Numbered from the stretch's first letter, positions 25,652-40,025 are shown. The stretch: 64,000 bases of DNA from Treponemataceae bacterium (GCA_963677895.2 CAXXGJ010000038.1:544001-608000); one strand, 5' to 3'. The notes: generated by a model from the sequence alone, not told the origin. Translations and numbers: made by a program.

Positions 25652-26506
25652 CTAGAAAGGTCGAATCCAGGCTTTTATATAGACATTGTCCGCAATCAGG
25701 ACAATGATCGAAAAACCGACGACCAAAACCGCGGAAAGCGCGTCGCCCCGAACGGCGGGCCGACGGGGAGGAAGGGTCCTGCCCTCCCCCGTATAGCAGC
25801 GCGCCTCCATGGCCTCTGCCAGAAGCTCGGCCCGCTCCAGCGCCCGGATCGTCACCGGCACGAAAAGCGGCGCGTAGGCCTTCGCCTTAGCGATGATGTT
25901 CTTTCTGCCGGAACCGAAATCGGCGCCCCTGGACGCCTGCGCTTTCACGATTTCCTCCAGCTCGCCTGCCACGATCGGAACGAAGCGGATGGACGTGGCT
26001 GCGGCGAGGGACAGGCGATGGACGAAGGCAACCTTGCCGCTCAAGCGGCGCAGGATGTCCTCGATGCCCCGCGCCGCGTCGGATTCGGTCGTAACCGAGG
26101 TGAACCATCCGACGATGATCATCATGCCGGAAGATCGCAGCAGGATGAGGGATACGATCCAGAGTTCGTGCATCGTGAAGGAAAGAGGCCCGATGGAGAG
26201 AAGGGAAACGGAAAGATCGCCGGGCCAGCGGAAGAGGAATTGAAGGACCGCGGTCAGGATCAACACGGGGAAGATGGGTTTCAGCGTCCGAAGCAGGAAC
26301 GGCACGGGTATCCTAGAGGCCGCGGCGAGGCCGAGCGACAAAAATATGACCAAGGCCACCGCGAGCGGTGTCGGCGCGGCTATCGCGACCGCGGAGAGGG
26401 CCAGCAGGAATACGTATTTCGTCGAGGGACGTAGGCCGTGAAACCACGAACCCGAGTCGATATATTGGCCGATGCCGATATTCCTGAAAAATTCCAGATT
26501 CTTCAT
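25652..26506 (-). CDS. ecfT: ECF transporter T component
   Basis: IRFVP...AQASRGADF and LAEAMEARCY motifs. Confidence 0.88.
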   Translation of the reverse strand: MKNLEFFRNIGIGQYIDSGSWFHGLRPSTKYVFLLALSAVAIAAPTPLAVALVIFLSLGLAAASRIPVPFLLRTLKPIFPVLILTAVLQFLFRWPGDLSVSLLSIGPLSFTMHELWIVSLILLRSSGMMIIVGWFTSVTTESDAARGIEDILRRLSGKVAFVHRLSLAAATSIRFVPIVAGELEEIVKAQASRGADFGSGRKNIIAKAKAYAPLFVPVTIRALERAELLAEAMEARCYTGEGRTLPPRRPAVRGDALSAVLVVGFSIIVLIADNVYIKAWIRPF

Positions 26507-28305
26507 GCCGGGCCTCCGCTCAAGGGTGCGGCGACGGCTTGCCCCGGGACCGACGAGAGCCCCAGCGCATCGCGCAGAGCTTCCAGGGTCAAAGGATGCC
26601 CGTCGATATGGACGCCGAAGTCTTCCAGCCGCTTCGCGAGCTCGACGGCAAAGGGTAGCGCTATGCCCCAGCCCGGTTCGTAGCGATCGTAGAAGATATC
26701 CCGCGGCGAACCGAAATCGGCGAGCCGCCCGTCGCGGAAAACGGCGACCATATCGGCCAACGCCGCTTCCTCCATGGAGTGCGTGGCGAAAACCACCGTC
26801 CTCCCTTGCCGGGAAACCTGTTCAAGGAGGCCGAATACCGCCTTTTGCGAGGAGGGATCCAGAGCCGCGGTGGGTTCGTCGAGAAGGACTGCCTCGGATT
26901 CAAGGGCGAAGACGCCCGCGAGGGCGAGCTTTCGCTTTTCGCCCCCCGAAAGTCCGCGCGTCATCCGGTCGCGGAATGTGTCATAAGGAATGCCAGCCGA
27001 ATCCATCCACTTTCGCACCCTGTCGACGAGGGACGCCCCGGATATTCCCAGATTCCGGGGGCCGAAGGCGACGTCGTCGGCGGCGTAGATTTCGAAAAGC
27101 GCCGACTCGGGACGCTGGATCGATAGCGGGGCGGTGATTCTCAGTTTGCGGGCATCGAGCGAGGCGGATTTCGTATCCTGCCCGAAGCTGATGACGGAGC
27201 CCTGGGAGGGCTGGATCAATGAGTTGAAAAGCTGGAGCGCGGTGGACTTGCCGGAACCCGTCTTGCCCACCAGCGCGACTCGCCAGCCCCTCCGGACGGC
27301 GAAGGAAACATTTTCCAATGCCCTCACTTCTCCGGCTGTGCCACGCAGGTAGGAAAAGGATACATCCCTGAAGGAAAACACGGGCTCGGAGGCGGCTTCA
27401 TTTCGTACATCCGAGGCAGGCGAAGGCGCTGTTTCGGGGCTTGGATCTCGCGCCGACGCGATCCGCCCGGCCAGTGTTTCGATGTCCTCGTCGAGGGAAG
27501 GCCGCAAGCCGAACAATCCGGCCGCGGCGATGGTTTTTGGAAGATCGAAACCCATGGAAAGGGCGGCGATTCCGCCTCCGGCAGGGGTCGCCGGCGGATC
27601 GTCATCCGTCAAATTCGGAAGGTCCAGAAAAAACCGGGCAGAACTTCCGTCGTAAGCGATCCGCCCCGCCTCGAGGGCGATGATTCTTCCGGCGCGGGCG
27701 GCGTCATCCATATCGTGAGTCACGTGAACGACGGTCATCCCCTGGGTGACGAGCTCTTCCATGAGCCCGAGGACGGTCTGCTTGGTCTTCGGATCGAGCA
27801 TGGAGGTAGCCTCGTCGAAAACGAGGCATTCGGGATTCATCGCCAGAGCCCCGGCGATGGCGAGCTTCTGCTGCTGGCCGCCCGAGAGGGAGCGCGTAGG
27901 CCGCCCGCGCAGCTCGGTCATGCCCACCTTGTCGAGGGCCGCGGTAACTCGCCTTTCTATTTCCTCGTTGGGAAGCCCCAGATTGGAAGGACCGAAGGCC
28001 ACATCTTCCTCGACGCAGCTGGATACGATCTGATCCACGGGGGATTGAAAAACGAGAGCGACGGCGGAACGCACCGCGAACAAGGAGCCGCGGAGCGCGG
28101 GATCGAGCCCTTTCACGAGCACGCTGCCCGAATCGGAGGTCCGAAGTCCGTTGAACAGACGTACCAGCGTGCTCTTGCCCGAACCATTGTTGCCGACGAT
28201 GGCGACATATTCGCCCTTGTCGATGGAGAGGGAGACATCCTTCAATGCCTGGGTTCGGGAATCGGGATATTTGAAACTGACGGAATCGAGCTTTATCAGC
28301 GGCAT
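26503..28305 (-). CDS. ECF transporter fused ATPase (EcfA-EcfA')
   Basis: Two ABC domains: GNNGSGKST / LSGGQQQ / DE and GKTGSGKST / LSGGEKR / DEPT. Confidence 0.9.
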   Translation of the reverse strand: MPLIKLDSVSFKYPDSRTQALKDVSLSIDKGEYVAIVGNNGSGKSTLVRLFNGLRTSDSGSVLVKGLDPALRGSLFAVRSAVALVFQSPVDQIVSSCVEEDVAFGPSNLGLPNEEIERRVTAALDKVGMTELRGRPTRSLSGGQQQKLAIAGALAMNPECLVFDEATSMLDPKTKQTVLGLMEELVTQGMTVVHVTHDMDDAARAGRIIALEAGRIAYDGSSARFFLDLPNLTDDDPPATPAGGGIAALSMGFDLPKTIAAAGLFGLRPSLDEDIETLAGRIASARDPSPETAPSPASDVRNEAASEPVFSFRDVSFSYLRGTAGEVRALENVSFAVRRGWRVALVGKTGSGKSTALQLFNSLIQPSQGSVISFGQDTKSASLDARKLRITAPLSIQRPESALFEIYAADDVAFGPRNLGISGASLVDRVRKWMDSAGIPYDTFRDRMTRGLSGGEKRKLALAGVFALESEAVLLDEPTAALDPSSQKAVFGLLEQVSRQGRTVVFATHSMEEAALADMVAVFRDGRLADFGSPRDIFYDRYEPGWGIALPFAVELAKRLEDFGVHIDGHPLTLEALRDALGLSSVPGQAVAAPLSGGPA

Positions 28306-28453
28306 CTGGCCTTCCCTTGCAGAGGGGGCCGCGCGTTAATGTTCAAGGTTCACCTCACGTCTCGGCGACTTCGCGTCCAAGCGTATATCGCAATAATGCC
28401 GCTAGGCGCCGCGGGAGTCAAGTCGGGGAGCCGCGTGAAGCCTCCGGATGGGT

Positions 28454-28972
28454 CTAGGACAGGGCGCCTGGGCGGAAGAACAGACCATCGGTCACAAAAT
28501 GAATCCTTTCCTTCCAGGCTCCTTCGATCGCCTCGGCATGGAGGGTGTCGCCCATGACGATCGCCGAAGTGCCCTCCAGGACCAGACCGGAAAGGGAACA
28601 TTCCATCCATCCGACGACTCCGGCCGGAATTTTCACGTCGACGCGTTTGCCGTGAAAAGCTTCTATGCCCAATTCATCGTATTTATCGACATCCTTGCCC
28701 GAGATCGATCCGGATCGGTTCACCAGGTCTTTTTGATCGACGCCCGGCAGGGCGATGGCGAACACTTTCGAAACTTCCAGATCCTTGAAGGTTCTGTGGC
28801 TTATATCAAGAACGCAGATAAACCGAGAAATAGGATCGTAGTCCAGGGGACAACACCAGGCTACTGGGGCGAGATCGTATCGGCCATCTTGGCCTTTCGT
28901 GCAGATGAGAACTATTCCCCCGGCATTTTGAAGCGTATAAGCTTCCTTCGGCGCGACAACCCTGTATTCCAT
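28454..28972 (-). CDS. flavin reductase family protein
   Basis: DLAPVAW, SGSISGKDVDK, WMEC; ATG at 28972 after GGAGG. Confidence 0.75.
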   Translation of the reverse strand: MEYRVVAPKEAYTLQNAGGIVLICTKGQDGRYDLAPVAWCCPLDYDPISRFICVLDISHRTFKDLEVSKVFAIALPGVDQKDLVNRSGSISGKDVDKYDELGIEAFHGKRVDVKIPAGVVGWMECSLSGLVLEGTSAIVMGDTLHAEAIEGAWKERIHFVTDGLFFRPGALS

Positions 28973-29061
28973 TCCGGACCTCCCTGCCTTCGCGTTTCCG
29001 TGCCTTTCAAATCTATCACACGGTGATGGACAGAAAGAAGCGCCGCGGGGATAATCCATGC

Positions 29062-30432
29062 ATGGAACTTCTTTCCCCTGCCGGCAGCATCGAAAAACTG
29101 ATCTACGCCTACCGATATGGCGCCGACGCGGCGTATATCGGCCTCCCCTACTTCAGCCTCCGCGCCCAGGCCGAAAACATCGACGATGCGGATGGCATGG
29201 CTCCGGACAGGATCCGCGAGATAAAGGAATCCTTCGGGCGACCTGGCGGCCTGCCGGAGCGGCTCAGTGTCTCGCCGGATCGGCCGCCGCCGGGCAAGAA
29301 ACTCTACTGCGCCGCCAACATTTTCTTCCACAACGACGATCTGGACGCCCTCGAAAAAGCGCTGCCGAGGATCGCGGAATATCCCTTCGACGGATTTCTC
29401 GTGAGCGACCTCGGCGCCTATGAAATGCTGAGAAAAGCCTTTCCCGACAGGGAATTCCACCTCAGCACCCAGGCGAACTGCACCAATTGGCGGGCGGCGA
29501 AGCTCTATCGGGATATGGGCTTCAGCCGCATCGTTCCGGCGCGCGAACTTTCCCTCGACGCCATCAAGGCCATAAAGGACCATGTGCCGGGGCTGGAGGT
29601 GGAAGCCTTCGTGCACGGCGCCATGTGCATGGCCTATTCGGGCAGATGTTTCATCTCCTCCTGGCTGGCGGGAAGGTCGGCCAACAAGGGCGACTGCACG
29701 CATTCCTGCCGCTGGCACTATAAAGTCTATATCGAAGAGGAAAAGCGCCATGGTCAGCTCCTGCCCGTAGAGACGGGCGAGACGAGCCACGGCGGCTACA
29801 CCCTCCTCATGTCCTCCCGCGATCTTTGCATGATCGACCACCTCCAGGACCTGAAGGCGGCGGGCGTCGACAGCCTCAAGCTGGAAGGCAGGATGAAAAG
29901 CATCTACTATGTCGCCCTCGTCACCCGCGCCTACCGGTACGCGCTCGATCATCCGGGGGAAGAGAATCCCTTCCGCGAGGATCTCTTCGCCGTCAGCCAC
30001 AGGGAGTACGACACGGGCTTTTTCTATGGCCGCGAGGGGATGGACCTGTCGGCCGTCACGTCCTACCGGCAGACCCACCTTTTCGCGGGAAGCCTCGAGG
30101 ATATGCCGGCCATAGAGGATGGAGCCGCCCAGAACCTCGATGCCGGCGCGGAGAGGACTTCGCTGTTTTCGCGATTTGAAGACGAAGCCTGGACCATTCC
30201 CGTCTATGCCGAACTGAAGAACAGCATCCCGGCCGGCGAAGCCATAGAGGTCATTCCCCCCGAAGGGAAGGCCATCAGGCTCGAGGCGGAGGATTACAGA
30301 TTTTTCGACGTTGAGGGCTGCTCCGGAGGAAAAATCCGGCACGGCAAGCCATGGTTCCTGCAGATCAGAAAAGAAAGGCTGGGCGGGCTGATCCCTCAAG
30401 CCTCGTGGCTGCTCCGGATGGCCAGCGCTTAA
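29062..30432 (+). CDS. peptidase U32 family Fe-S protein (TrhP-like)
   Basis: MELLSPAG, GADAAYIG, HLSTQAN, FVHGAMCMAYSGRC, CTHSCRW, SLKLEGRMKS. Confidence 0.88.
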   Translation: MELLSPAGSIEKLIYAYRYGADAAYIGLPYFSLRAQAENIDDADGMAPDRIREIKESFGRPGGLPERLSVSPDRPPPGKKLYCAANIFFHNDDLDALEKALPRIAEYPFDGFLVSDLGAYEMLRKAFPDREFHLSTQANCTNWRAAKLYRDMGFSRIVPARELSLDAIKAIKDHVPGLEVEAFVHGAMCMAYSGRCFISSWLAGRSANKGDCTHSCRWHYKVYIEEEKRHGQLLPVETGETSHGGYTLLMSSRDLCMIDHLQDLKAAGVDSLKLEGRMKSIYYVALVTRAYRYALDHPGEENPFREDLFAVSHREYDTGFFYGREGMDLSAVTSYRQTHLFAGSLEDMPAIEDGAAQNLDAGAERTSLFSRFEDEAWTIPVYAELKNSIPAGEAIEVIPPEGKAIRLEAEDYRFFDVEGCSGGKIRHGKPWFLQIRKERLGGLIPQASWLLRMASA

Positions 30433-31301
30433 GCCTTCAGCACCCCGCAGATCAGGTTGAACAGCCTCACGCAGTCGGAGGGTTTCGTGGCATAGCCCGT
30501 CCCCGAAGTCTCCTGCCTCACGACGATGCTGCCATAGGCGTCGTCGCCGCCGGCCTCTATTTCGTAGCCGCTCGCGCGCAGATCCTCGAACCTGCTGTAG
30601 CTGGCGCCCTTCCCCTTCGTGAGAATGACGGCGTAGAGATAGGGCACCTCGGCGCTCGGCCCCTTGTTGATGGCCGCCTGGACCTGGACGCCCACGAAAT
30701 CGTCGGCTTTGCGCTTGGGCTCGATCATGAGGCGGATATCCTCCGGCACGTCGCCCCCATTCTTGTCCTTGTCGAAGCGGAGATAGGGCGTGACGACGAC
30801 GTGCTCGGGAATCCGCTCGGCGAACAGCGCCTGGAAGCAGGGCATTTTCAGCGAAAGGACATGGGGCACGAAGGCCTTCACCCTTCCGAAAAACATGGCG
30901 GGGACGGCGAAAAGCAGTCCGTCGGCCAGAATCAGCGACAGATCGGGGCTGAAGGCGAGCGAAACCCCCGCGGCGATCGCCACGGCGCTTGCCAGCATGA
31001 CCATGAGGACGCTGCCGCCGATGGACTTGCCGAAAATCGCCTTCGATTCGCGCAGGGTATCGGCCAGCTTGTCGATCTCGGCCATCGAGACGGGACGCCA
31101 TTCCTCGAGCCCCTGGTCGGCCGGCTTGTTCGTGATCGGCTTGAGGCGGAGGGGAATGTAGCCGAGGACAATGGCGATCAAGCCGGGCAGCAGCCCCCAG
31201 CCGAAGAGGACCTGGAGGAGGGCTCCGGCGGAAAAAAGCCCTGCCGCGAGGGCCAACCTTGCGGAGAGACTCAGTTTCATGGAAGAAAATTCGTAGTCCA
31301 T
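30429..31301 (-). CDS. hypothetical membrane protein (about 4 TM plus soluble C-terminal domain), last gene of radical SAM cassette
   Basis: Hydrophobic segments; GAGGT RBS; starts 4 nt after the rSAM stop. Confidence 0.7.
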   Translation of the reverse strand: MDYEFSSMKLSLSARLALAAGLFSAGALLQVLFGWGLLPGLIAIVLGYIPLRLKPITNKPADQGLEEWRPVSMAEIDKLADTLRESKAIFGKSIGGSVLMVMLASAVAIAAGVSLAFSPDLSLILADGLLFAVPAMFFGRVKAFVPHVLSLKMPCFQALFAERIPEHVVVTPYLRFDKDKNGGDVPEDIRLMIEPKRKADDFVGVQVQAAINKGPSAEVPYLYAVILTKGKGASYSRFEDLRASGYEIEAGGDDAYGSIVVRQETSGTGYATKPSDCVRLFNLICGVLKA

Positions 31302-31305
31302 CGCT

Positions 31306-32727
31306 TTACCTCTTTTCGTCGGCCGCGGAAACCGCGGGCCGCGACATCGCGCGATTATCGCCGCCTGCCCTTGTTGCCATCGTTTTTCCGGCGCTCTCGA
31401 GCTCGCCGTACCCAGCGTAGTCCCAATACAGGGGGCAGGCGGCCTGGCAGGCGGTGAAGGAACCGCAGCTTGCGCAGGATTCGGGAGCGTAGCGTTTATT
31501 CTTGAAGTGGGCGGCGCGTTCCGAGAACCAGATATCCGAAAAATCCTTCTTCAGAATGTTGCCGAGCGATTCGGGATAGGAGGAACAGGGCAGGATATCG
31601 CCGGCGGGATTCACGCTCAGGAGACCGTCGGCGGCGGCGCAGCTCTTGTTGCCCAAGCCCCTGGCGACGGGATTGTAGATGCAGAGCGGCGTCGGCGAAT
31701 ACCAGAAAAAGGTGAGCCCTTCCCTGAAGGCTTGCCTGCGGATTTCGTCGACGAAGGCTCCCGTTTCCGAATAGGCCACGAAGAGCTCGGGCGCCCGCTC
31801 AGAATTGGCCGCCGGGATGTAGAGGTTCATCGAAAAGCGCTCGACGCCGAGGCTCTTCAGGTAGGCGGGCATCGAGAGAAGGCTTTCCCTATTGGGCCGG
31901 GTAAGGGTCGAGTTGGTCTGCACGCGGATTCCCGCGGCGGCGAGCGCTTCGATGCCCGCCAAGGTGCGCTCGTGCGCGCCCGGGGCGCCGCAGAGGCGAT
32001 CGTGGATCGCGGCGTCGGGGCTTTCAAGGCTCACCTGGGCTGTCCTCAAGCCCGCCTTGTAGAGGGACCGGGCGCGCTCGGGGCTCGCCAGCGTACCGTT
32101 CGTGATCAAATTGACGCGAAGATGTATTCCGTCGGCATAGGCGATGAGCTCCTCGAGGTCAGCCCTGAGCAGCGGCTCCCCTCCGGTGAAGGAGAAAAAG
32201 GGAATTTTGGCCTTTTCCCTGAAAATGTCGATGACGCGCTTGATTTCCCGCGTATCCATCTCTTCCGACGCCATGCCGGAAGGAAAGGCTTGCCCGGATC
32301 CGCAGCTCCCGCCGCTTCCGCAGCCCGCGTAGCAGAAAAGGCAGCGATTGTTGCAGCGGTAGGTGACGGCTATCTCGCCCAGGATGGGGAGCCGGGTGAA
32401 GTCAAAGCCGTAGGCGACCTGCTCGGTCGTCACCTGGCGGCCATCGCAGATATCTTTGATGTCCGAAAGAAAGCCGGCTATGTCGCGCAGCTTCGCCGCG
32501 TCCATTCCCGGCAGCTTCTCGATTTTCTGGCCCGAATCGAGCGCCGCGAGGATCTTCACGCCCGTTTCATTGGTCTTGTAGACCATGTTGGGCGGAAGAA
32601 TGACGACGTTGTCCTCCTCGCGCACGAACACGTAATCGCGTACGGATTTCCAGAATCCCGGCACCCAGGAGAGATCTGGTCGGTCGCCTTGGTTCCTTGT
32701 GCGCGCGTTCTGATTGCCGCCGATCAA
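31306..32727 (-). CDS. radical SAM/SPASM protein with RRE-like N-terminus
   Basis: CNNRCLFC, FTGGEPLL, TNG; SPASM Cys CAAA...GDILPC...CASC.....C...C; TTG start overlaps upstream TGA, with GGAGG RBS. Confidence 0.88.
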   Translation of the reverse strand: MIGGNQNARTRNQGDRPDLSWVPGFWKSVRDYVFVREEDNVVILPPNMVYKTNETGVKILAALDSGQKIEKLPGMDAAKLRDIAGFLSDIKDICDGRQVTTEQVAYGFDFTRLPILGEIAVTYRCNNRCLFCYAGCGSGGSCGSGQAFPSGMASEEMDTREIKRVIDIFREKAKIPFFSFTGGEPLLRADLEELIAYADGIHLRVNLITNGTLASPERARSLYKAGLRTAQVSLESPDAAIHDRLCGAPGAHERTLAGIEALAAAGIRVQTNSTLTRPNRESLLSMPAYLKSLGVERFSMNLYIPAANSERAPELFVAYSETGAFVDEIRRQAFREGLTFFWYSPTPLCIYNPVARGLGNKSCAAADGLLSVNPAGDILPCSSYPESLGNILKKDFSDIWFSERAAHFKNKRYAPESCASCGSFTACQAACPLYWDYAGYGELESAGKTMATRAGGDNRAMSRPAVSAADEKR

Positions 32728-32843
32728 TGACCGCCTCCGGATACGCAGGCCGAATGGCAGGCGGAGTGGCACGCCGAATGGCAGGCTGAATGACAAGCCG
32801 AATGGCAGGCGTCGTGGCAAGCGTTGTGGCAGGCCGAATAGCA
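32724..32843 (-). repeat. 12 nt / 4 aa coding repeat (CHSA)
   Basis: TGC/TGT-CAY-TCN-GCN units with synonymous variation. Confidence 0.9.
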
Positions 32844-34451
32844 GGCCCCCGCCTGGCCTTCCTTGCCGGGCGTGAAGCAACCTGAGAAGCAGGCCGAGGA
32901 GCGCATGAAATCGCTGTAACCCGTCGAGAGCGCCTCGGGAAGTCCCAGCCCCGAGAAGCGCGTGGGATGGGAATGGACATAGCAGTAGCCATGCCAGTAG
33001 TACCAGTAATGGTTCCGGGCGCGCCAGGCAAGCCGGCGCTCTTCGTCCATAAGCGCTTCGCCGCTTTTTCGCTCAGACTCCATCGTCTCGGCCTCGGCCA
33101 GCAGCGCCCGGTAATGAGCCTTCGTCGCTTCCATATCGCAGTCCCAGAGCTTTTCCTGGAGCCCTCGGATCGTCGCCTCGAAGAAGTCCATCATCAGGCC
33201 GGACAGCACCCTGCCCTCTGCGTCGAAGCAGGCGAGGAAACTTTCCTCGATCGCGTCCTTCGCCTCATTCCGGCTCAGGATGGAAATCCTCAAGGGATTT
33301 TCCTCCGCGATCTCGATGATTCCCTGACTGCGCAGCCCTTCCAGCATGAGGGCGACGACCCTGGCGAGGGGGAACTCGAAGAGAAGCGCCACTTCGGCGG
33401 GATGCAAATCCTCGGCCACCTTGCCCGGAACCTGGTAGGTTCCGGTGAACAGCTTGGGCGGCACCCAGGAATCGCCGGCCCAGGCGATTCCCTTCACGAG
33501 CGCGGCGCGCTTTCCGTAGCGGCGAAGGTTCAGCATGTAAAGGTAAAGCGCCAGCGCGATGAGCGCCGCGAAGGCCGGAACCGCGACGAGGGGATTCGCC
33601 AGCAGCCTGAGGCCGCGCAGGCTTTCTCCGTCACCGCCCGATCCTTCGGCGGCGCCCGGCCGCGCCATTGCCCCAGGTTGCCCAACGGCCCCAGGTTGCC
33701 CCGTAGCCCCCGCCTGCCCGGCCGCCTCATCGAAGACCGCCGACATGGGCAGATAGCCTTCGGGGAAATACAGCCGCAGGCGCTGGGTTTGCCGCGCCGC
33801 AAGCTTTTCCTGGAAAAACCTCAGCGTCAGGTAATACGAGCCGTCGTCGCCCTTCGATCCGTAGTAATCGATCTTGTTCTCGGCATTCACCGATTTTTCG
33901 GTTTTGAGAGGAACGCCTGAGCGCTCGGTTTCGGTGAGCGACTCGCCGCCTACCTTCATGGGGAGCACGAGCCTCACCGTCCGCGACGCCATGCCCGTAT
34001 CCCACTCGACAGGAGCCCAGTCGAAGTAGAAAAGATCCCCGAACTCCTGGCTGGTTGTCCTGCCGATGAGGCCGGCGCGGGCGAAATCCCCCGCATAGTG
34101 CAGGAAGTAGTAGGCGCTGCCGGAAAAGCCCTTGCCGCCCGCGAGGATGACATCGAATTTTCCCGAACCCATGGGCTTGATGGAAAGTGGCTGGCGGAGA
34201 CCGCCGGGGATATCGGCGTAGCAGCCGTTCATGTCCCAGACGGGCTCGAAGGTCTCGCCCTGGAAATAGAAACCGTGCATCTGGCCGCCCGAGGCTTCCC
34301 ATTTGAGGCTGTAGTACAGATCCGCTTTGCCGTCGGTCCGCAAAACCACCGTGATGTCGGCCGAATCCAGCGATGTCGAAAGAGCGGAAAGGCCGCCCAC
34401 GAGAGCGAAAAGCGCGATGGCGAGCATCGCCCCGAAACGCGTTCGTTTCAT
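32724..34451 (-). CDS. membrane protein (DUF2207-like architecture) with C-terminal Cys/His CxxxC-repeat tail
   Basis: Signal peptide, exported domain, GQPGA linker, TM helix followed by RRYGKR, HPAEVALL, tail CYSACHNACHDAC(HSAC)5VSGGGH. Confidence 0.8.
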   Translation of the reverse strand: MKRTRFGAMLAIALFALVGGLSALSTSLDSADITVVLRTDGKADLYYSLKWEASGGQMHGFYFQGETFEPVWDMNGCYADIPGGLRQPLSIKPMGSGKFDVILAGGKGFSGSAYYFLHYAGDFARAGLIGRTTSQEFGDLFYFDWAPVEWDTGMASRTVRLVLPMKVGGESLTETERSGVPLKTEKSVNAENKIDYYGSKGDDGSYYLTLRFFQEKLAARQTQRLRLYFPEGYLPMSAVFDEAAGQAGATGQPGAVGQPGAMARPGAAEGSGGDGESLRGLRLLANPLVAVPAFAALIALALYLYMLNLRRYGKRAALVKGIAWAGDSWVPPKLFTGTYQVPGKVAEDLHPAEVALLFEFPLARVVALMLEGLRSQGIIEIAEENPLRISILSRNEAKDAIEESFLACFDAEGRVLSGLMMDFFEATIRGLQEKLWDCDMEATKAHYRALLAEAETMESERKSGEALMDEERRLAWRARNHYWYYWHGYCYVHSHPTRFSGLGLPEALSTGYSDFMRSSACFSGCFTPGKEGQAGACYSACHNACHDACHSACHSACHSACHSACHSACVSGGGH

Positions 34452-35068
34452 TCAATCTCCTCCCTGACCGACATGCGGCCGGACGCGGGCAAGCCGCCGT
34501 CTATCTGTATCCGCCGCTCCCGCAGAAGCCCCGCTTTTTCGCGCAGCGCCGCGGCGACGCGGCTTTCCGCGTCCGCGAAGGGGTCCGCGTCCTCCAGGCC
34601 GAAGCGTTTCTCGGTAGCGGCTTCGTCCTTTTCCTTCTGAAAAATGTCGACGATATCGAGCGCCTCGTCCAGCGCGGCGTCGGCTAGTGGATCGTCCTTG
34701 CCTTCCCGCCCGCAGGCATCCAGATACTCGCCCGCGGCCAGCGCGACGAGGCGGACGGCATCGGCCGCTGGCCCCTCGGCGATCCTGATCCGCGCCAATT
34801 TCTCCCTCGAGGCGGCGGCATGGCTCAGCTTCTTCGCCCTATCGCGCCCGAGCGCCGCGTCCCTGGCGGCGATGGCTGATTTAGGTCCAGCCCCGACTAA
34901 AAGAAAAATTAACCCGGCCGAAATTACGATGGCCGATCCTATCAAGAGCGCGAAGCCCGCCGGAAATCCGCCGGCGAGGCCCGCGAGCGCTGCGGCCAGT
35001 CCCGCGAAGCCGCTGCCGATCCCCAGCGGAGAGCGCGCGTACCATTTCAGATAATCCTTGGGAAGCAT
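34448..35068 (-). CDS. hypothetical membrane-anchored helical protein, first gene of radical SAM cassette
   Basis: Two N-terminal TM segments, Ala-rich helical body; ATGA overlap with the next gene. Confidence 0.7.
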   Translation of the reverse strand: MLPKDYLKWYARSPLGIGSGFAGLAAALAGLAGGFPAGFALLIGSAIVISAGLIFLLVGAGPKSAIAARDAALGRDRAKKLSHAAASREKLARIRIAEGPAADAVRLVALAAGEYLDACGREGKDDPLADAALDEALDIVDIFQKEKDEAATEKRFGLEDADPFADAESRVAAALREKAGLLRERRIQIDGGLPASGRMSVREEIE

Positions 35069-35234
35069 GTTAAGACTCTACTATTACGGCCCCCCTCGTG
35101 CAAGGAGCCCGCCATGCCGCTTTCGATTGCCCCGCTGCGGGAAACGGCGCTCCAGAAAGTCCGGCGCGGCGAAAAACTTGACAATCGCCTCCGGCTCCTC
35201 TAGGGTTGTATCGTACGAGTGAAGGGAGGCTACC

Positions 35235-35867
35235 ATGAAAAGTATCCGGACTAGTTTCTCCAGGCTCAGGCGCGGCGCCTTCCTGTCGGGCGCGGCGCTC
35301 GCCCTCGCCATGATCGCCGCGTCCTGCGCGACCACGCAGCCTGTCGTCTACAAACTGGACATCATTCCCGAGGCGAAGGCCAGGACCGAAATCGTGATGC
35401 CTCTTCTCACGACGTTGCGCGATTTCGGCAACAACATGGCGGCCCTCATGCTCACCGATTATCGCTTCGCGGAAATGAAGGAAACCGGCGGGGGCGCGTA
35501 TCTCTATCGTTTCGATAGAACGAACCAGAAACTTCCGCGCCACGCCTACATCGTATTCCGCCTCGAGGGGAGTCCGGCCATAACGACCAACCTCGGCGAA
35601 AAGAACTACATTCTCCTGGACGGCGGCTCCATAGGTCTCGTGCCCGCCGACGAACCGGCCGTCGTCGCCAACGGGAAATTCACTCTGCAGTTCACGAAGA
35701 GCGACTTCCGCGAGGCCTTCAATCCCTGGGTCATCGGCGAAAAAGGCAGCTACCCCGAACAGCTTCTCCTCTGGCTCAAGAACCCTGCCAGCAAGGAGGC
35801 GGACATGAAAAACCTGGCCTCGCTGCTGACGAGCGCCTTTCCGAGGATAGTCTACAAGATGAATTGA
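35235..35867 (+). CDS. putative lipoprotein
   Basis: GGAGG RBS; basic N-terminus, hydrophobic core, lipobox IAASC. Confidence 0.7.
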   Translation: MKSIRTSFSRLRRGAFLSGAALALAMIAASCATTQPVVYKLDIIPEAKARTEIVMPLLTTLRDFGNNMAALMLTDYRFAEMKETGGGAYLYRFDRTNQKLPRHAYIVFRLEGSPAITTNLGEKNYILLDGGSIGLVPADEPAVVANGKFTLQFTKSDFREAFNPWVIGEKGSYPEQLLLWLKNPASKEADMKNLASLLTSAFPRIVYKMN

Positions 35868-35873
35868 GTGGGG

Positions 35874-36341
35874 CTATTTCTGCCTGCGTTTGGCCGACAT
35901 TCGAGAGAGCCAGTCGGGAAATTCCTTCTCGACGAATTCGAAGATGTCGTGCGCTTCCTCGATCCGCACCTTCAGGGCTGGATCTGAGCCCTTTTTGAGC
36001 GCGAGCCCCCGGTCGGCAATCTCGTGGAGGCCGGCGAGGATCTCCATGCGGGAACGCATGAAGGTGAGCCAGCCGCCCGACTTGAAGCGAAAGTAGTCCC
36101 TGCGGGGCACGGGCGAGTGCGCCGGTTCGAGTATGCCTTCGGCGACGAGATGCTTGGCCGCGACGGAGACGGCGCTTTTCGAGGCTCCCAGCGTGTCGCA
36201 TATATCATTGAGAGAAAGGCTGATCTCATCGGAAATGAGTATGGTGCCCAGGACGCGGCCGTTCATCCGCGGCATTCCCAACTGCTCGAAGAAGAGTCCC
36301 AGATCTTCTATGAAATGCATCTCTTCTATGTTATGGATCAC
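35874..36341 (-). CDS. GbsR/MarR-family transcriptional regulator
   Basis: GMPRMNGRVLG, LSLNDI..LGASKSAVS, RRDYF. Confidence 0.82.
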   Translation of the reverse strand: MIHNIEEMHFIEDLGLFFEQLGMPRMNGRVLGTILISDEISLSLNDICDTLGASKSAVSVAAKHLVAEGILEPAHSPVPRRDYFRFKSGGWLTFMRSRMEILAGLHEIADRGLALKKGSDPALKVRIEEAHDIFEFVEKEFPDWLSRMSAKRRQK

Positions 36342-36422
36342 GAATGCCCTCCGGATGGTTCGAGTATAGAGACCGGCCGGCCGGCTGTCAACGAAGACTA
36401 TTTGTAGTACCTTAACTTTCTC

Positions 36423-36446
36423 AACTTTCTGTATTTACAAAAAGTT
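36423..36446. promoter_or_regulatory. putative operator palindrome
   Basis: AACTTTcTGTA-TT-TACAaAAAGTT between divergent regulator and ATPase genes. Confidence 0.5.
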
Positions 36447-36509
36447 TATATCGTTCTATGATTGCTTCTTTACGCCGGACGCCATTCGCGCGAGCGGAGA
36501 GGAGCATGC

Positions 36510-39077
36510 ATGAACGATGATTTCCAGCCCGAATCCCTGCAGGGGCTTTCCGATCAGGAAGTGATGGAGCGCCTTGCCCGCGACGGCTACAACGAACTGC
36601 CCTCGTCCAAGAAACGCTCGATTTTCCTCATACTATGGAGCGTGGTCAGGGAACCTATGTTCATCCTCCTCATCGCTTGCGGCGCGCTTTATCTCCTCCT
36701 CGGCGACCGCGACGAAGCCCTGATGCTCATGGGCTTTGTCGTCGTGGTGATCGGCATAACCCTCTACCAAGAAAACAAGACCGAAAAAGCCCTCGACGCC
36801 CTCCGCGACCTCTCGAGCCCGCGAGCCCTCGTCATCCGCAATGGGCAACAGATACGCATCGCGGGACGCGATGTCGTGGCCGACGACATCGTCCTCCTGG
36901 CCGAAGGCGACAGGGTGCCCGCCGATGCCGTCGTCCTTCGGTCCACCAACCTCTCTGCTGATGAATCGCTGCTGACGGGCGAATCGGTGCCCGTGCGCAA
37001 AAGCGGCTGGAACGGCGTGGAAGCCATCGGCAGGCCCGGCGGCGACGACCAGCCTTTCGTCTACTCGGGTTCCATGATAGTTCAGGGACAGGGCATAGCG
37101 CGCGTGCTCGGCACCGGCCTCAACACGGAAATCGGCAAGATCGGCAAGGCGCTCCAGACTCTCGAGGAGGGCGAAGGCCACGAAGGCGATCTCCAGCATC
37201 AGACCGCCACCATCGTCAAGACCTTCTCTCTCGTCGGCGTGAGCCTCTGCCTCCTCGTCGTCGTCATCTTCGGGCTCACGAGAGGGGACTGGCTCCGAGG
37301 CATCCTCGCGGGCATTTCCCTGGCCATGGCCACCCTGCCCGAGGAATTCCCCGTCGTCATGACTATTTTCCTGGCGCTCGGCGCCTGGCGCATATCCAAA
37401 CGCAACGTCCTCGCGCGCAAGACCCACGCGATCGAAACCCTCGGATCGGCCACCGTCCTCTGCACCGACAAGACCGGCACGCTCACCCTAAACAAAATGA
37501 CCGTCGCCCGGCTCTGCTCCCGAGGCCGCGTATGCGAAGTGTCGGGCAAGGCCGCCTCGCTGCCCGACGAGTTCCACGAAATCGTGGAATATTCCATTCT
37601 GGCGAGCCCCGCCGATCCTTTCGAACCCATGGAAAAGGCGATGAGGGAGTTGGGAGCCCGCACGCTGCACAATACGGAGCATCTGCACGAAGACTGGTCC
37701 CTCGTGCGCGAATACCCTCTGTCAGCGGAGCTTCTCGCCATGAGCAGGGTCTGGGAATCCAAGGACGGCCTAAACTACATCATCGCGGCCAAGGGAGCGC
37801 CCGAGGCGATAGCCGACCTCTGCCACATGAAGGCGGAGGAACGAAAATCTCTCGACATCGACATCGACGGAATGGCGGACGACGGCCTCAGGGTCATCGG
37901 CGTCGCCTGCGCCTCCTTCTCGAAGACGAATCTGCCTGAAATCCAGCACGATTTCGATTTCCGCTTCCTGGGTCTCCTGGGGCTTTTGGATCCGGTACGC
38001 CCTATGGTCCCGGCCGCCGTCGCCGAATGCAAGACGGCGGGCATCCGCGTCATCATGATAACAGGCGACTATTCAGGCACCGCGAAAAACATAGCCAGGA
38101 CCATAGGCCTCTCGAATCCCGACAAAGTCATAACCGGTCCCGAAATGGACGGGATGAGCGACGCCGACCTCGCCATGCGCATCGGCGAAGTGAGCATATT
38201 CGCCCGCGCCGTGCCCGAACAGAAGCTCAGGATCGTCCAGGCGCTCAAGAGCAACGGCGAGGTGGTGGCCATGACGGGCGACGGCGTCAACGATTCGCCC
38301 GCCCTCAAGGCCGCCGACATCGGCATCGCCATGGGCGGCAGGGGCACCGACGTCGCCCGGGAATCGGCCGGCCTCGTCCTTCTCGACGACGATTTCTCCT
38401 CCATCGTGGCCGCCATCAGGCTGGGAAGAAGAATTTACGACAACCTGCAGAAGGCCATGACCTTCATTTTTTCCGTCCACCTGCCCATCGCCGGGATGTC
38501 CCTCCTCCCCGTCCTTTTCGGCTGGCCTCTGGCGCTCCTCCCGGTCCATATCATGTTCCTGGAGCTCATCATCGATCCGGCCTGTTCCATCGTCTTCGAA
38601 ATGGAGGAGGAAGAGGACGACATCATGAAGCGCAGGCCGCGCAGCAAGAAGGAAAAACTCTTCGGGCCGAGGATGATATTTACCGGTCTCTGCCAGGGGC
38701 TCGTCGTGTTCGCCATCGTGGCGGGCATCTACGCCTGGGGTTTGGGACAAGGTTTCGGCGAAGGCGAGGCCCGCGCCATTTCCTTCGTCACGCTCGTCTT
38801 CGGCAACATCGGCATGATTTTCGCCAACCGCTCATGGTCGCGAAGCATCTTCCAGAGCCTGAAAGTGCCCAACAAGGCGCTGTGGTGGGTATGCCTGGCG
38901 GCCGTGACTTTCCTCGGCATCGCCATCTTCGTGCCTGCGGTCAACGAGAAGATATTCAGCTTCTCGCCGCTTCATCCCTGGGAGATAGCCTTCTGCGCGG
39001 TGACGAGCCTGGTGGCGATCCTTGCGAACGAAATAGCGAAGCTGCCCGTCTTTACGAGGCTATTCGAGAAGACATGA
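36510..39077 (+). CDS. cation-transporting P-type ATPase (type II, Ca2+-like)
   Basis: TGES, LPEEF, DKTGTLT, KGAPE, TGD, GDGVNDSPAL. Confidence 0.92.
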   Translation: MNDDFQPESLQGLSDQEVMERLARDGYNELPSSKKRSIFLILWSVVREPMFILLIACGALYLLLGDRDEALMLMGFVVVVIGITLYQENKTEKALDALRDLSSPRALVIRNGQQIRIAGRDVVADDIVLLAEGDRVPADAVVLRSTNLSADESLLTGESVPVRKSGWNGVEAIGRPGGDDQPFVYSGSMIVQGQGIARVLGTGLNTEIGKIGKALQTLEEGEGHEGDLQHQTATIVKTFSLVGVSLCLLVVVIFGLTRGDWLRGILAGISLAMATLPEEFPVVMTIFLALGAWRISKRNVLARKTHAIETLGSATVLCTDKTGTLTLNKMTVARLCSRGRVCEVSGKAASLPDEFHEIVEYSILASPADPFEPMEKAMRELGARTLHNTEHLHEDWSLVREYPLSAELLAMSRVWESKDGLNYIIAAKGAPEAIADLCHMKAEERKSLDIDIDGMADDGLRVIGVACASFSKTNLPEIQHDFDFRFLGLLGLLDPVRPMVPAAVAECKTAGIRVIMITGDYSGTAKNIARTIGLSNPDKVITGPEMDGMSDADLAMRIGEVSIFARAVPEQKLRIVQALKSNGEVVAMTGDGVNDSPALKAADIGIAMGGRGTDVARESAGLVLLDDDFSSIVAAIRLGRRIYDNLQKAMTFIFSVHLPIAGMSLLPVLFGWPLALLPVHIMFLELIIDPACSIVFEMEEEEDDIMKRRPRSKKEKLFGPRMIFTGLCQGLVVFAIVAGIYAWGLGQGFGEGEARAISFVTLVFGNIGMIFANRSWSRSIFQSLKVPNKALWWVCLAAVTFLGIAIFVPAVNEKIFSFSPLHPWEIAFCAVTSLVAILANEIAKLPVFTRLFEKT

Positions 39078-39298
39078 AAAACGCCTAAACCATGTTTCAC
39101 CGATTAAAATAATGCGCGAAAAGCATTGCGTCAAAGCGCATAAACGTTAGGCGATATCGTAATTATCGCGATCATTTTCCTCTCGGAACGCATATAAATC
39201 CACAATTCTTCTGATAGAAACAATTTCAACCTGTAACAAGAATTAACTATGTTTCACAAAATTCTGGTGTACATATTCGAATTAGCGAGCAAGCCGCC

Positions 39299-39326
39299 TT
39301 GACAACCCACTAACCTGTTATAGAAT
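39299..39326 (+). promoter_or_regulatory. sigma70-type promoter of DUF6305 cluster
   Basis: TTGACA-16-TAGAAT in 345 nt AT-rich intergenic region. Confidence 0.55.
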
Positions 39327-39422
39327 GTGGCCATCTCGATCGACTGACTGAAATCAGCCAACGCAATTAATCATCTATAAAATTCATATATAGAGAATTA
39401 TTGAGAAAAAGGAGATACACAA

Positions 39423-40025
39423 ATGCGTAAAGGAACGACTCTGCTCTTGGCGCTCGCGGCACTGTTTGTCATGACGCCGGGATTCGTCTTCGCCGCCAGT
39501 TCGGGAGATCCCATCAAGCAATACGGGCTTCCGATGCTCATCACCAACGCGGGTCAGGGACCTGGAGGAAAGATGGCGCGGCTCCTCGTGTCGCAGACCA
39601 AGATCATCGTGCTGGATCAGGATTTCTGGTACAAATCGGAGCCGGTCGAGACGGACATCAAGGAAAGGCCCTACAAGGCGCTGATGGTCATCATCGGTTC
39701 CTCCGACAAGGGCTTGGGCGCGTCGGGCATCACCATCGACCAGGAAATAGCCAGGCTCCAGAAAATGGTGAAGACGGCCAAGGACGGCAAGCTGCCGATC
39801 ATCGCCGTGCTGCTCGAGAAGGACAAGCGTTCCACCATCGCCACGAACCCCAACGAGCGCTGCATCGACACCATCTGCCCGAGCGCGGACTGGATGATCG
39901 TCATCAAGGGCGGCAACACCGACCAGCGTTTCGACAAGCTCAAGGCGAAATACAAGATTCCGCTCACCGTCATAGACAACGCCATCGACTTCACCGAGCT
40001 GTGCAAGAAAATATTCATCAAATAG
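39423..40025 (+). CDS. exported DUF6305-like protein
   Basis: Signal peptide; PMLITNAGQGPG, IIGSSDKGLGASGI..EIAR. Confidence 0.7.
   Translation: MRKGTTLLLALAALFVMTPGFVFAASSGDPIKQYGLPMLITNAGQGPGGKMARLLVSQTKIIVLDQDFWYKSEPVETDIKERPYKALMVIIGSSDKGLGASGITIDQEIARLQKMVKTAKDGKLPIIAVLLEKDKRSTIATNPNERCIDTICPSADWMIVIKGGNTDQRFDKLKAKYKIPLTVIDNAIDFTELCKKIFIK

Follow-up and report, generated by a model that had tools for sequence, protein, structure and literature searches.

Radical S-adenosylmethionine (SAM) maturases of the kind that act on peptides made by the ribosome and altered after translation (RiPPs) have been studied almost only on short, exported peptides. CteB, SkfB and PapB, which combine a RiPP recognition element (RRE) with a radical SAM core and a SPASM domain (seven SPASM Cys in the case of CteB), make Cys-to-carbon thioethers on Cys-rich cores, and the cores of SCIFF and PapA show some in-line repeats and a regular Cys spacing. 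QhpD, also a radical SAM/SPASM enzyme, makes Cys thioethers in QhpC, the gamma subunit of quinohemoprotein amine dehydrogenase (QHNDH). To our knowledge, the CXXX-repeat families of NCBIfam are predictions without experiments, and the canonical members of the DUF2207 family have Gly-rich tails and no radical SAM partner. One protein-sized substrate was demonstrated in 2026: Dieter et al. describe how CrpC of Methanococcus voltae makes thioethers on the whole 28.8-kDa protein CrpA, installing ranthionine-type rings of the C-x-x-acceptor form, with three of its seven SPASM Cys predicted to hold AuxI and thereby to leave an iron free that could bind a substrate Cys; QHNDH is mentioned in the same text (PMC13692751). 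Integral membrane proteins of family TIGR04222, which end in a low-complexity tail with Cys, have been proposed as MNIO substrates (PMC12452194). Here we describe a cassette of four coupled minus-strand genes, named A, B, C and D in their order, at positions 30429-35068 of a window of 64,000 nt from a Treponemataceae bacterium (GCA_963677895.2, CAXXGJ010000038.1:544001-608000; all coordinates are counted from the window start). It encodes a radical SAM/SPASM enzyme (C) directly next to a membrane protein (B) that ends in a Cys repeat, and we consider it probable, at roughly 0.6, that C covalently modifies this tail, most likely by thioethers.

Concerning the relation to known systems, the enzyme architecture is common to CteB/SCIFF, PapB/PapA, SkfB and SuiB, whose cores are likewise Cys-rich. 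The substrates of the sactipeptide and ranthipeptide systems, in contrast, are free peptides of ~40-60 aa with leaders, often exported, whereas here the repeat is the tail of a 575-aa membrane protein, and the cassette has neither a protease nor an exporter as a conserved companion. The NCBIfam CXXX-repeat system (TIGR04117, TIGR04114 and TIGR04118, with the maturase TIGR04115) is similar in that a C-x-x-x run is the predicted target of a neighbouring radical SAM enzyme, and TIGR04117 alone among the families matches the tail at E<0.01, with 16.3-16.6 bits where the cut-off is 50 (7.3 bits for the whole protein); those families, however, are small peptides or proteins, judged by NCBIfam names and profile lengths (46-98 positions) only. 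The likeness to QhpD/QhpC would lie in a thioether-type modification of a protein subunit that remains in a larger functional assembly, but QhpC, instead of being the repeat tail of a membrane protein, is a small subunit, soluble in the periplasm, whose links join Cys to Asp/Glu, and no qhp genes are present at the cassette.

B resembles DUF2207 proteins (PF09972/PF20990) in its signal peptide, extracytoplasmic beta-sandwich, transmembrane (TM) segment, cytoplasmic part and low-complexity C-terminal tail. It may be a remote DUF2207 member at best: the DUF2207 Pfam models match neither its separate domains (E<=5) nor the protein as a whole (E<=0.01), and one relative of B (P0008) has a precomputed PF09972 match. 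As in CrpC/CrpA, an RRE-like, radical SAM and seven-Cys SPASM enzyme stands beside a Cys-rich repeat at the C-terminus of a real protein; CrpA differs in carrying a 17-residue repeat, not a 4-residue repeat on a DUF2207-like membrane protein, and the chemistry demonstrated for CrpC (PMC13692751) is a prediction for the present cassette. With TIGR04222/MNIO it shares a membrane-protein Cys tail as the proposed substrate of a neighbouring RiPP-type enzyme; there, the MNIO enzyme is not a radical SAM protein, the tails, rich in Ser and Gly, are predicted to lie in the periplasm, and the association is loose, with a third of the genomes lacking an MNIO (PMC12452194). B shows no TIGR04222 match at E<=10, and family scans of the cassette and flanking proteins found no MNIO-like family. 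No model in Pfam or NCBIfam covers the tail-enzyme pair, and in the literature searched no published account was found of a DUF2207-like carrier with a radical SAM partner or of a CHSA repeat. An earlier note on this DNA stated that no characterised system is arranged in this way; as regards the arrangement itself the statement holds, and CrpC/CrpA and TIGR04222/MNIO are precedents that narrow the gap.

Tail and enzyme co-occur near-obligately in the B family. Starting from the protein, a scan in which each species was represented by one genome detected B relatives in 192 of them, the best 80 of which were analysed. Seventy-seven of the 80 open reading frames (ORFs) reach a stop, every one of them with the same tail at its end, and three run off the contig. 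The radical SAM gene follows the tailed gene in every one of the 74 loci with at least 300 nt of downstream sequence, a D-like gene follows the radical SAM gene in 64/64 loci with at least 1900 nt, and an A-like gene precedes B in 67 of the 71 loci that have 700 nt or more upstream (none was detected in L039, L067, L076 and L079). An arrangement that recurs in 74/74 informative related loci is not a chance pattern.

The enzyme-first approach gives a similar picture. Among 401 Spirochaetota genomes, 28 contain the radical SAM enzyme at E<=1e-40, and 24 of these have a B match (E<=1e-5) that adjoins the enzyme gene on one and the same contig, while none of the genomes outside these 28 holds a B match at the latter threshold. 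In one further genome (G283) the enzyme gene is neighboured by a B-like carrier that bears the tail, in another (G287) the contig starts with the tail just before it, and in G051 the enzyme lies at a contig end, which is uninformative. Overall, the tail is adjacent in 26/28 genomes, with one uninformative case and one true exception, G322, whose enzyme is the weakest full-length match (284 bits, 36-38% identity). The G322 genome is AT-rich (37% GC locally), and the downstream side of the locus runs off the contig.

Starting from the tail, a degenerate DNA pattern for (CHSA)3-C retrieved more than 120 metagenome stretches, 80 of which, with flanking DNA, were examined. The repeat forms the C-terminal end of an ORF in 76/80 (the odd ones are L156, L176, L191 and L194), and all 50 carriers with a complete N-terminus (140-1064 aa, median 575) match the B profile; a free short-peptide version of the tail was found nowhere in this sample, in line with the original observation that no short precursor peptide is visible at the locus. 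Where at least 1500 nt lie downstream, the enzyme of the family is adjacent in 48 of 57 loci (42 by the distance rule and six whose stop-to-stop frame starts upstream of the tail stop) and present somewhere in the locus in 52. The loci that lack an adjacent enzyme belong mostly to other tail subtypes, in which adjacency is not obligatory. One such subtype, ending in ...[19 protein letters not shown], was seen in L201, L203, L208, L182 and L216, none of which has the enzyme directly beside the tail; in L201 the two are separated by a 531-aa ORF, and in L182 and L216 no radical SAM gene occurs within 5.0 and 2.3 kb downstream, respectively. The earlier note had proposed co-occurrence of the Cys tail with its radical SAM neighbour as a check, and the association was recovered from all three directions (74/74 loci, 26/28 genomes and 52/57 metagenome loci).

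The tail itself consists of CFSGCF, a 10-residue linker and nine Cys spaced by three residues, so that the end of B can be summarised as CFSGCF...(C-x-x-A)8-CVSGGGH; reading of the DNA confirms the sequence as it was first written. The last five CHSA units and the following CVSG are identical in 81/81 sequences. In the same sequences several synonymous codons are used at every codon position, Ser being encoded by both TCN and AGY, and third-codon-position identity to the window has a median of 0.57. As the residues are identical while the codons vary, the repeat is kept residue by residue, and with synonymous sites saturated neither recent expansion nor gene conversion explains its sameness. 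The tail is under strong purifying selection, and all four positions of the unit are constrained, not Cys alone. The longest C-x3 run has nine Cys in 74 of 80 complete relatives, eight in three and ten in three. The early units vary, with Y, Q, V or P at position 2 and N, D, Q or H at position 3; over all tail subtypes, Cys and its spacing are the most constant feature.

A profile made from the last 110 residues only and run against 1.84 billion representatives gave 79 matches at E<=1e-3, which include further carrier architectures as well as short signal-peptide proteins ending in (CHxx)n-GSRGWR. Three proteins of 117-229 aa (P0160, P0180 and P0183) all end in a (C-H/Y-x-x)n run followed by ...GSRGWR; P0160 and P0183 have a hydrophobic N-terminal segment, and P0180 begins with an Arg run and then a weakly hydrophobic stretch. 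They could be smaller, possibly exported, relatives of the tail. Attachment of c-type haem was also considered, given that CHSAC recalls CX3CH and that AhbD is the best NCBIfam match of the enzyme, and was rejected because the tail is placed in the cytoplasm, the motifs overlap and the AhbD score is far under its cut-off.

C matches PF04055 (Radical_SAM, E 6.4e-27, residues 121-275) and PF13186 (SPASM, E 1.4e-10, residues 363-421), and the Cys of its cluster motif are invariant in 84 sequences, all in agreement with its first description as a CxxxCxxC radical SAM enzyme with SPASM cysteines. Maturases of the sactipeptide and ranthipeptide type have seven or eight SPASM Cys, which serve two auxiliary clusters, and C has seven. 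Its AlphaFold2 (AF2) model, built from 84 sequences, has a predicted local distance difference test score (pLDDT) of 87 and a predicted template modelling score (pTM) of 0.87. The best fold match is SuiB (Z 26.6, root-mean-square deviation (rmsd) 3.5, 377 residues aligned, model 25-447 against chain 2-439), an alignment that spans the N-terminal part of SuiB, which we take to be its RRE domain; SkfB comes second (Z 26.3), followed by anSME (4k38_A, Z 25.4, rmsd 3.3, 307 aligned), viperins, ChlB, MoaA and CteB (5why, Z 23.4), and the epimerase EpeE scores Z 16.9. The sequence similarity to solved enzymes is remote (E 1e-8 to 1e-13). In the RRE-like region the model shows H22-29, E34-36, E41-44, E48-51, H54-64 and H77-94, with R36, D39, I43 and P46 invariant in the 84 sequences; against PqqD this region scores E 0.019 and 15.7 bits, under the cut-off of 23.4. 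The model thus supports the view that C is built like an RRE-bearing RiPP maturase.

Comparison with the radical SAM families of NCBIfam (AhbD, NirJ, PqqE, mycofactocin, GeoRSP, ACGX, ScmE/F, StsB, WgkB, PapB and others) gave no assignment: among the 25 families listed of the 68 matched, none reaches its cut-off on C, the PapB family NF047865 for instance scoring 54.3 bits against 340. PADLOC returned generic viperin-like similarity of the radical SAM core only, with no link to a defence system. A prediction of the complex between C and the C-terminal 110 residues of B, with SAM and three 4Fe-4S clusters included, scored 0.02 against a mark of 0.32, controls not having been run, and speaks neither for nor against binding.

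For B, Kyte-Doolittle hydropathy shows a signal-like segment at residues 6-24 and one strong TM segment at 288-306 (score 2.27), with five K/R in the 15 residues after it and two before. Because of the signal peptide, the single TM segment and the positive-inside rule, the tail is predicted to lie in the cytoplasm and the ectodomain outside; this placement by hydropathy and charge is the one originally suggested. In 47 metagenome tail carriers exactly one TM-like segment after residue 45 was counted in 31, and the rest are ambiguous through double-counted windows, threshold misses and uncertain starts, which makes the count too noisy as a topology test. The model of B, built from 79 sequences with a mean pLDDT of 81.9, contains a disordered linker at residues 244-284 between the ectodomain and the membrane helix; the beta-sandwich (25-230 in the model) and the winged-helix and helical domain (~340-500) are both confident. 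A fold search with the whole model is dominated by the ectodomain, which matches the Ost1/ribophorin I luminal domain (6c26_1, 184 residues aligned at Z 15.4 and rmsd 2.9) and then the N-domain of M1 aminopeptidases (3qnf_A, Z 13.8). The cytoplasmic domain carries the motifs WAGDxWxPP and QEKxWDCD, invariant in the alignment of 79 sequences; its fold likeness to Vps74/GOLPH3 (Z 5.3 and 5.1) is too weak to use. Between this domain and the repeat lies a box in which P505, Y512, F515, M516, S518, C521, G524, C525 and P528 are nearly invariant in the 79 sequences, a candidate for a "leader-like" recognition segment, and boxes of the [YF]xxF.x[ST]xxC type precede the tail in other subfamilies too. 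Homologues of B from the protein search number 23, some of them named DUF2207.

A second clade (loci L118-L135, for example L128:3391-9355 on the minus strand), which holds most of the 28 Spirochaetota genomes with the enzyme, shows which parts of the system persist. There the enzyme is 36-44% identical, and the carrier, of 920-1080 aa, only ~25% identical; it ends in ACHS repeats, interrupted by Val and closing in ...CVSSF, and scores 27.6 bits with PF09972 (cut-off 24.4) and 18.1 bits with PF20990 (cut-off 33). A and D are replaced by a coiled-coil/zinc-ribbon protein of 423-478 aa and a 2-TM zinc-ribbon protein of 177-184 aa. Tail and enzyme persist while A and D are replaced, and it is therefore these two that make up the system's conserved core.

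Table 1. Positions in the window of the cassette genes and of features within them; numbers after B and C are residues.
Feature	Position	Strand	Description
Gene A	34448-35068	-	206 aa; TM hairpin and long helical cytoplasmic C-terminal part (predicted)
Gene B	32724-34451	-	575 aa; DUF2207-like single-pass membrane protein with Cys tail
B 25-235	33747-34379	-	extracytoplasmic beta-sandwich domain; AF2 pLDDT 94-98
B 287-309	33525-33593	-	single TM helix, then LNLRRYGKR; hydropathy, AF2 helix 287-325
B 330-500	32952-33464	-	cytoplasmic winged-helix and helical domain; AF2 pLDDT ~89-97
B 505-528	32868-32939	-	box P..Y..FM.S..CF.GCF.P before the repeat; candidate recognition segment
B 537-575	32727-32843	-	repeat core: [12 protein letters not shown], five CHSA, CVSGGGH-COOH; DNA reading
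GGAGG	32734-32738	-	Shine-Dalgarno-like, for C; 6 nt before TTG, within tail Ser-Gly-Gly codons
Gene C	31306-32727	-	473 aa from TTG; radical SAM/SPASM enzyme with N-terminal RRE-like domain
C 20-95	32443-32670	-	RRE-like (PqqD-like) domain; three short strands, then helices (AF2)
C 125-132	32332-32355	-	CX3CX2C cluster motif; C125, C129 and C132 invariant in 84 sequences
C 349-431	31435-31683	-	SPASM region; seven conserved Cys: C349, C363, C381, C418, C421, C427, C431
Gene D	30429-31301	-	290 aa; two TM hairpins and ~150-aa C-terminal domain, predicted cytoplasmic

The genes of the cassette (Table 1) are closely joined. The stop of A overlaps the ATG of B (ATGA at 34448-34451), B ends in GGA GGC GGT CAT TGA by direct sequence reading, the start TTG of C (32727-32725) overlaps the TGA stop of B (32726-32724), and D begins 4 nt past the stop of C (gap 31302-31305); the ORF listing and the DNA reading therefore return the four coupled minus-strand genes of the earlier note with all their coordinates, overlaps and the gap. 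The GGAGG inside the tail codons may serve translational coupling of C. The frame of C extends over 31306-32880, being open for 51 codons 5' of the TTG across the tail in another frame (with LPFG-like repeats), and gene callers can therefore lengthen the enzyme. Many relatives of C are annotated at 480-540 aa. An apparent fusion of B with the enzyme (P0016, 937 aa) jumps mid-protein into the radical SAM part without the tail and is most likely a frameshift or assembly artefact, and the database entries P0011 and P0020, in which the tail is read in a shifted frame, look like artefacts of the same kinds at the repeat. In a scan of the four proteins at E<=0.01 the Pfam matches are confined to C, and no NCBIfam model passes its cut-off on A, B, C or D. 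A promoter and terminator scan of 30200-35400 gave one promoter-like and six terminator-like hits, against 0.8 and 5.5 expected from shuffles, which is uninformative.

Kyte-Doolittle hydropathy places a TM hairpin at ~25-58 in A and two, at ~16-53 and 98-141, in D, consistent with the 2-TM and ~4-TM proteins first described, and by charge distribution their soluble parts are all predicted to be cytoplasmic. Neither has a family match in Pfam, NCBIfam or PADLOC (for A at E<=0.01), and in the Protein Atlas both match clusters of hypothetical proteins only. The Atlas also offered a lead at 0.87 from A to PF10112, and the cluster matched by D is one whose commonest named phylum is Thorarchaeota, a hint at most.

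The flanks (25652-30432 and 35235-40025) include an energy-coupling factor (ECF) transporter T component, a fused double ATPase, a flavin reductase-like protein, a peptidase U32, a 210-aa protein without family, a MarR-type regulator, a P-type cation ATPase and a DUF6305 protein. These genes are ordinary and, over 107 related loci, not conserved with the cassette. It had been stated that no protease or ABC exporter lies nearby. To the letter this does not stand, as the U32 peptidase gene adjoins the cassette (29023-30432, plus strand) and an ECF-type ABC ATPase gene lies close to it (26503-28305); neither is conserved with the cassette, and with the first kept in 3/107 and the second in 12/107 related loci the statement holds in substance.

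Taken together, the system is real, strongly conserved and unnamed. Every point of the earlier note's inference that computation can reach is borne out, while its sensor or scaffold role stays a suggestion. We infer that the enzyme acts on the tail, and likewise which bond it forms, which residue accepts it and what physiological role follows. The cassette would be a maturation system of RiPP-like kind in which an integral membrane protein supplies the "core peptide" as its C-terminal tail in the cytoplasm. B would be exported by way of its signal peptide, with the beta-sandwich outside, one helix in the membrane and the winged-helix domain and tail inside. C would dock on B via the RRE-like domain, probably at the conserved box before the repeat, and would modify the repeat units one after another by 5'-deoxyadenosyl radical chemistry, the most likely product being a series of short intramolecular Cys-S-to-carbon thioether rings. 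Thioethers are proposed because relatives with RRE, radical SAM and SPASM parts next to Cys-rich cores make them, and the near-invariant Ala at i+3 from Cys is our guess for the acceptor, because of that position and of the C-x-x-acceptor rings of CrpA. The result might be a stiff rod lined with His on the inner side of the membrane, with A and D as membrane-anchored accessory factors. For thioethers taken by themselves we would put the odds a little short of even. A fuller version can be offered only tentatively, as one we would not bet on: C staples the (Cys-His-Ser-Ala)n tail into a ladder of rings, one option being lanthionine-like links from Cys-S to Ala-C-beta made by radical chemistry, and the resulting His-lined rigid rod binds metal or clusters and could couple the ectodomain, as a binding domain, to a cytoplasmic readout, the whole membrane protein being modified with no cleavage or export.

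Several points weigh against modification of the tail by thioether chemistry. The support for modification is genomic or structural prediction throughout. Judged by its sequence, C belongs to no characterised enzyme family: its best NCBIfam match, TIGR04545 (AhbD), reaches 138.9 bits against 500, with NirJ2 next, TIGR04463 (rSAM_vs_C_rich, the CrpC family) gives 33.7 bits against 525, and TIGR04115 (cut-off 350) has no match in this genome at E<=10. G322 (L136) has the enzyme without a tail ORF upstream and without the repeat pattern anywhere in a 94%-complete genome, and among the 57 tail-first loci the enzyme lies 1.6-2.9 kb downstream in three, 4.6 kb upstream in one, and is absent from the available DNA of five (L146, L169, L181, L182 and L216). 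AF2 places a helix at B 534-568, in a tail with pLDDT <50. The invariant His, Ser and Ala are not required by a simple Cys-to-carbon crosslink, and their invariance fits metal binding or His chemistry at least as well; since thioethers do not explain the invariant His, two rivals, a different reaction at the tail and a site for metal or a cluster, stay alive.

It is unlikely, in our estimate, that C modifies the tail by non-thioether chemistry, be it a His crosslink or C-C cyclophane (triceptide-like), a formylglycine or dehydroalanine (anSME-like) or epimerisation, with a product that might be built to chelate metal. Such chemistry would account for His, Ser and Ala being invariant along with Cys in the last five units, and it is favoured by the presence of anSME (Z 25.4) and EpeE (Z 16.9) among the structural matches of C and by a C that passes the cut-off of no thioether-synthase model; metal binding is, moreover, raised by Dieter et al. 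as a possible role of modified CrpA (PMC13692751). Yet it is Cys and its spacing that stay most constant over the tail subtypes, while positions 2 and 3 vary in the early units, the sulfatase recognition motif of anSME substrates is absent from the tail, and the SPASM Cys number seven, not eight, the count described for CrpC (PMC13692751). The odds are poorer still for a tail that is an unmodified metal or iron-sulfur module, with a Cys stripe and a His stripe on a helix, in which case the radical SAM enzyme would use another substrate with B as its anchor or regulator, or the tail as a cluster or electron donor. With Cys and His strictly paired and spaced (i, i+4), both would line up along the same face of a helix, and AF2 does draw one there (534-568), though at pLDDT <50; the five of 57 tail-first loci without an enzyme in the available DNA fit, and many Cys-rich proteins beside radical SAM enzymes bind metal (PMC13692751). 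What such a module leaves unaccounted for is a SuiB/SkfB-like enzyme with an RRE-like domain adjoining the tail in 74/74 loci, staying there even where the carrier has diverged to ~25% identity, and having its start overlap the stop codon of the tail gene; the nearby metal-transport genes (P-type ATPase and ECF module), moreover, are not conserved with the cassette. That the association is meaningless, a matter of co-inheritance in one lineage with the repeat as a low-complexity tail, is very improbable. A single phylum does supply most of the loci, and genomes that are related do not count as independent samples; against this, the pair persists across clades whose A and D genes are replaced, conservation does not extend to the flanking genes, purifying selection on the tail is strong and its synonymous sites are saturated, and all 24 B-matching genomes are among the 28 with the enzyme, with none without it.

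Modification of the tail by C would make the cassette a variant in which a RiPP-type radical SAM/SPASM maturase works on the tail of an integral membrane protein. If true, the pairing would extend RiPP-type radical SAM chemistry to membrane proteins in place, would point to a crosslinked or metal-binding structure at the inner membrane face and would be the first experimental entry into DUF2207-like proteins; relatives of B occur in 192 species genomes and on many metagenome contigs. The hypothesis is directly testable by two-gene co-expression and mass spectrometry. Should the ladder of rings also prove true, it would represent a structure of a new class, built after translation and common in uncultured anaerobes, and the first biochemical handle on the large DUF2207 superfamily.

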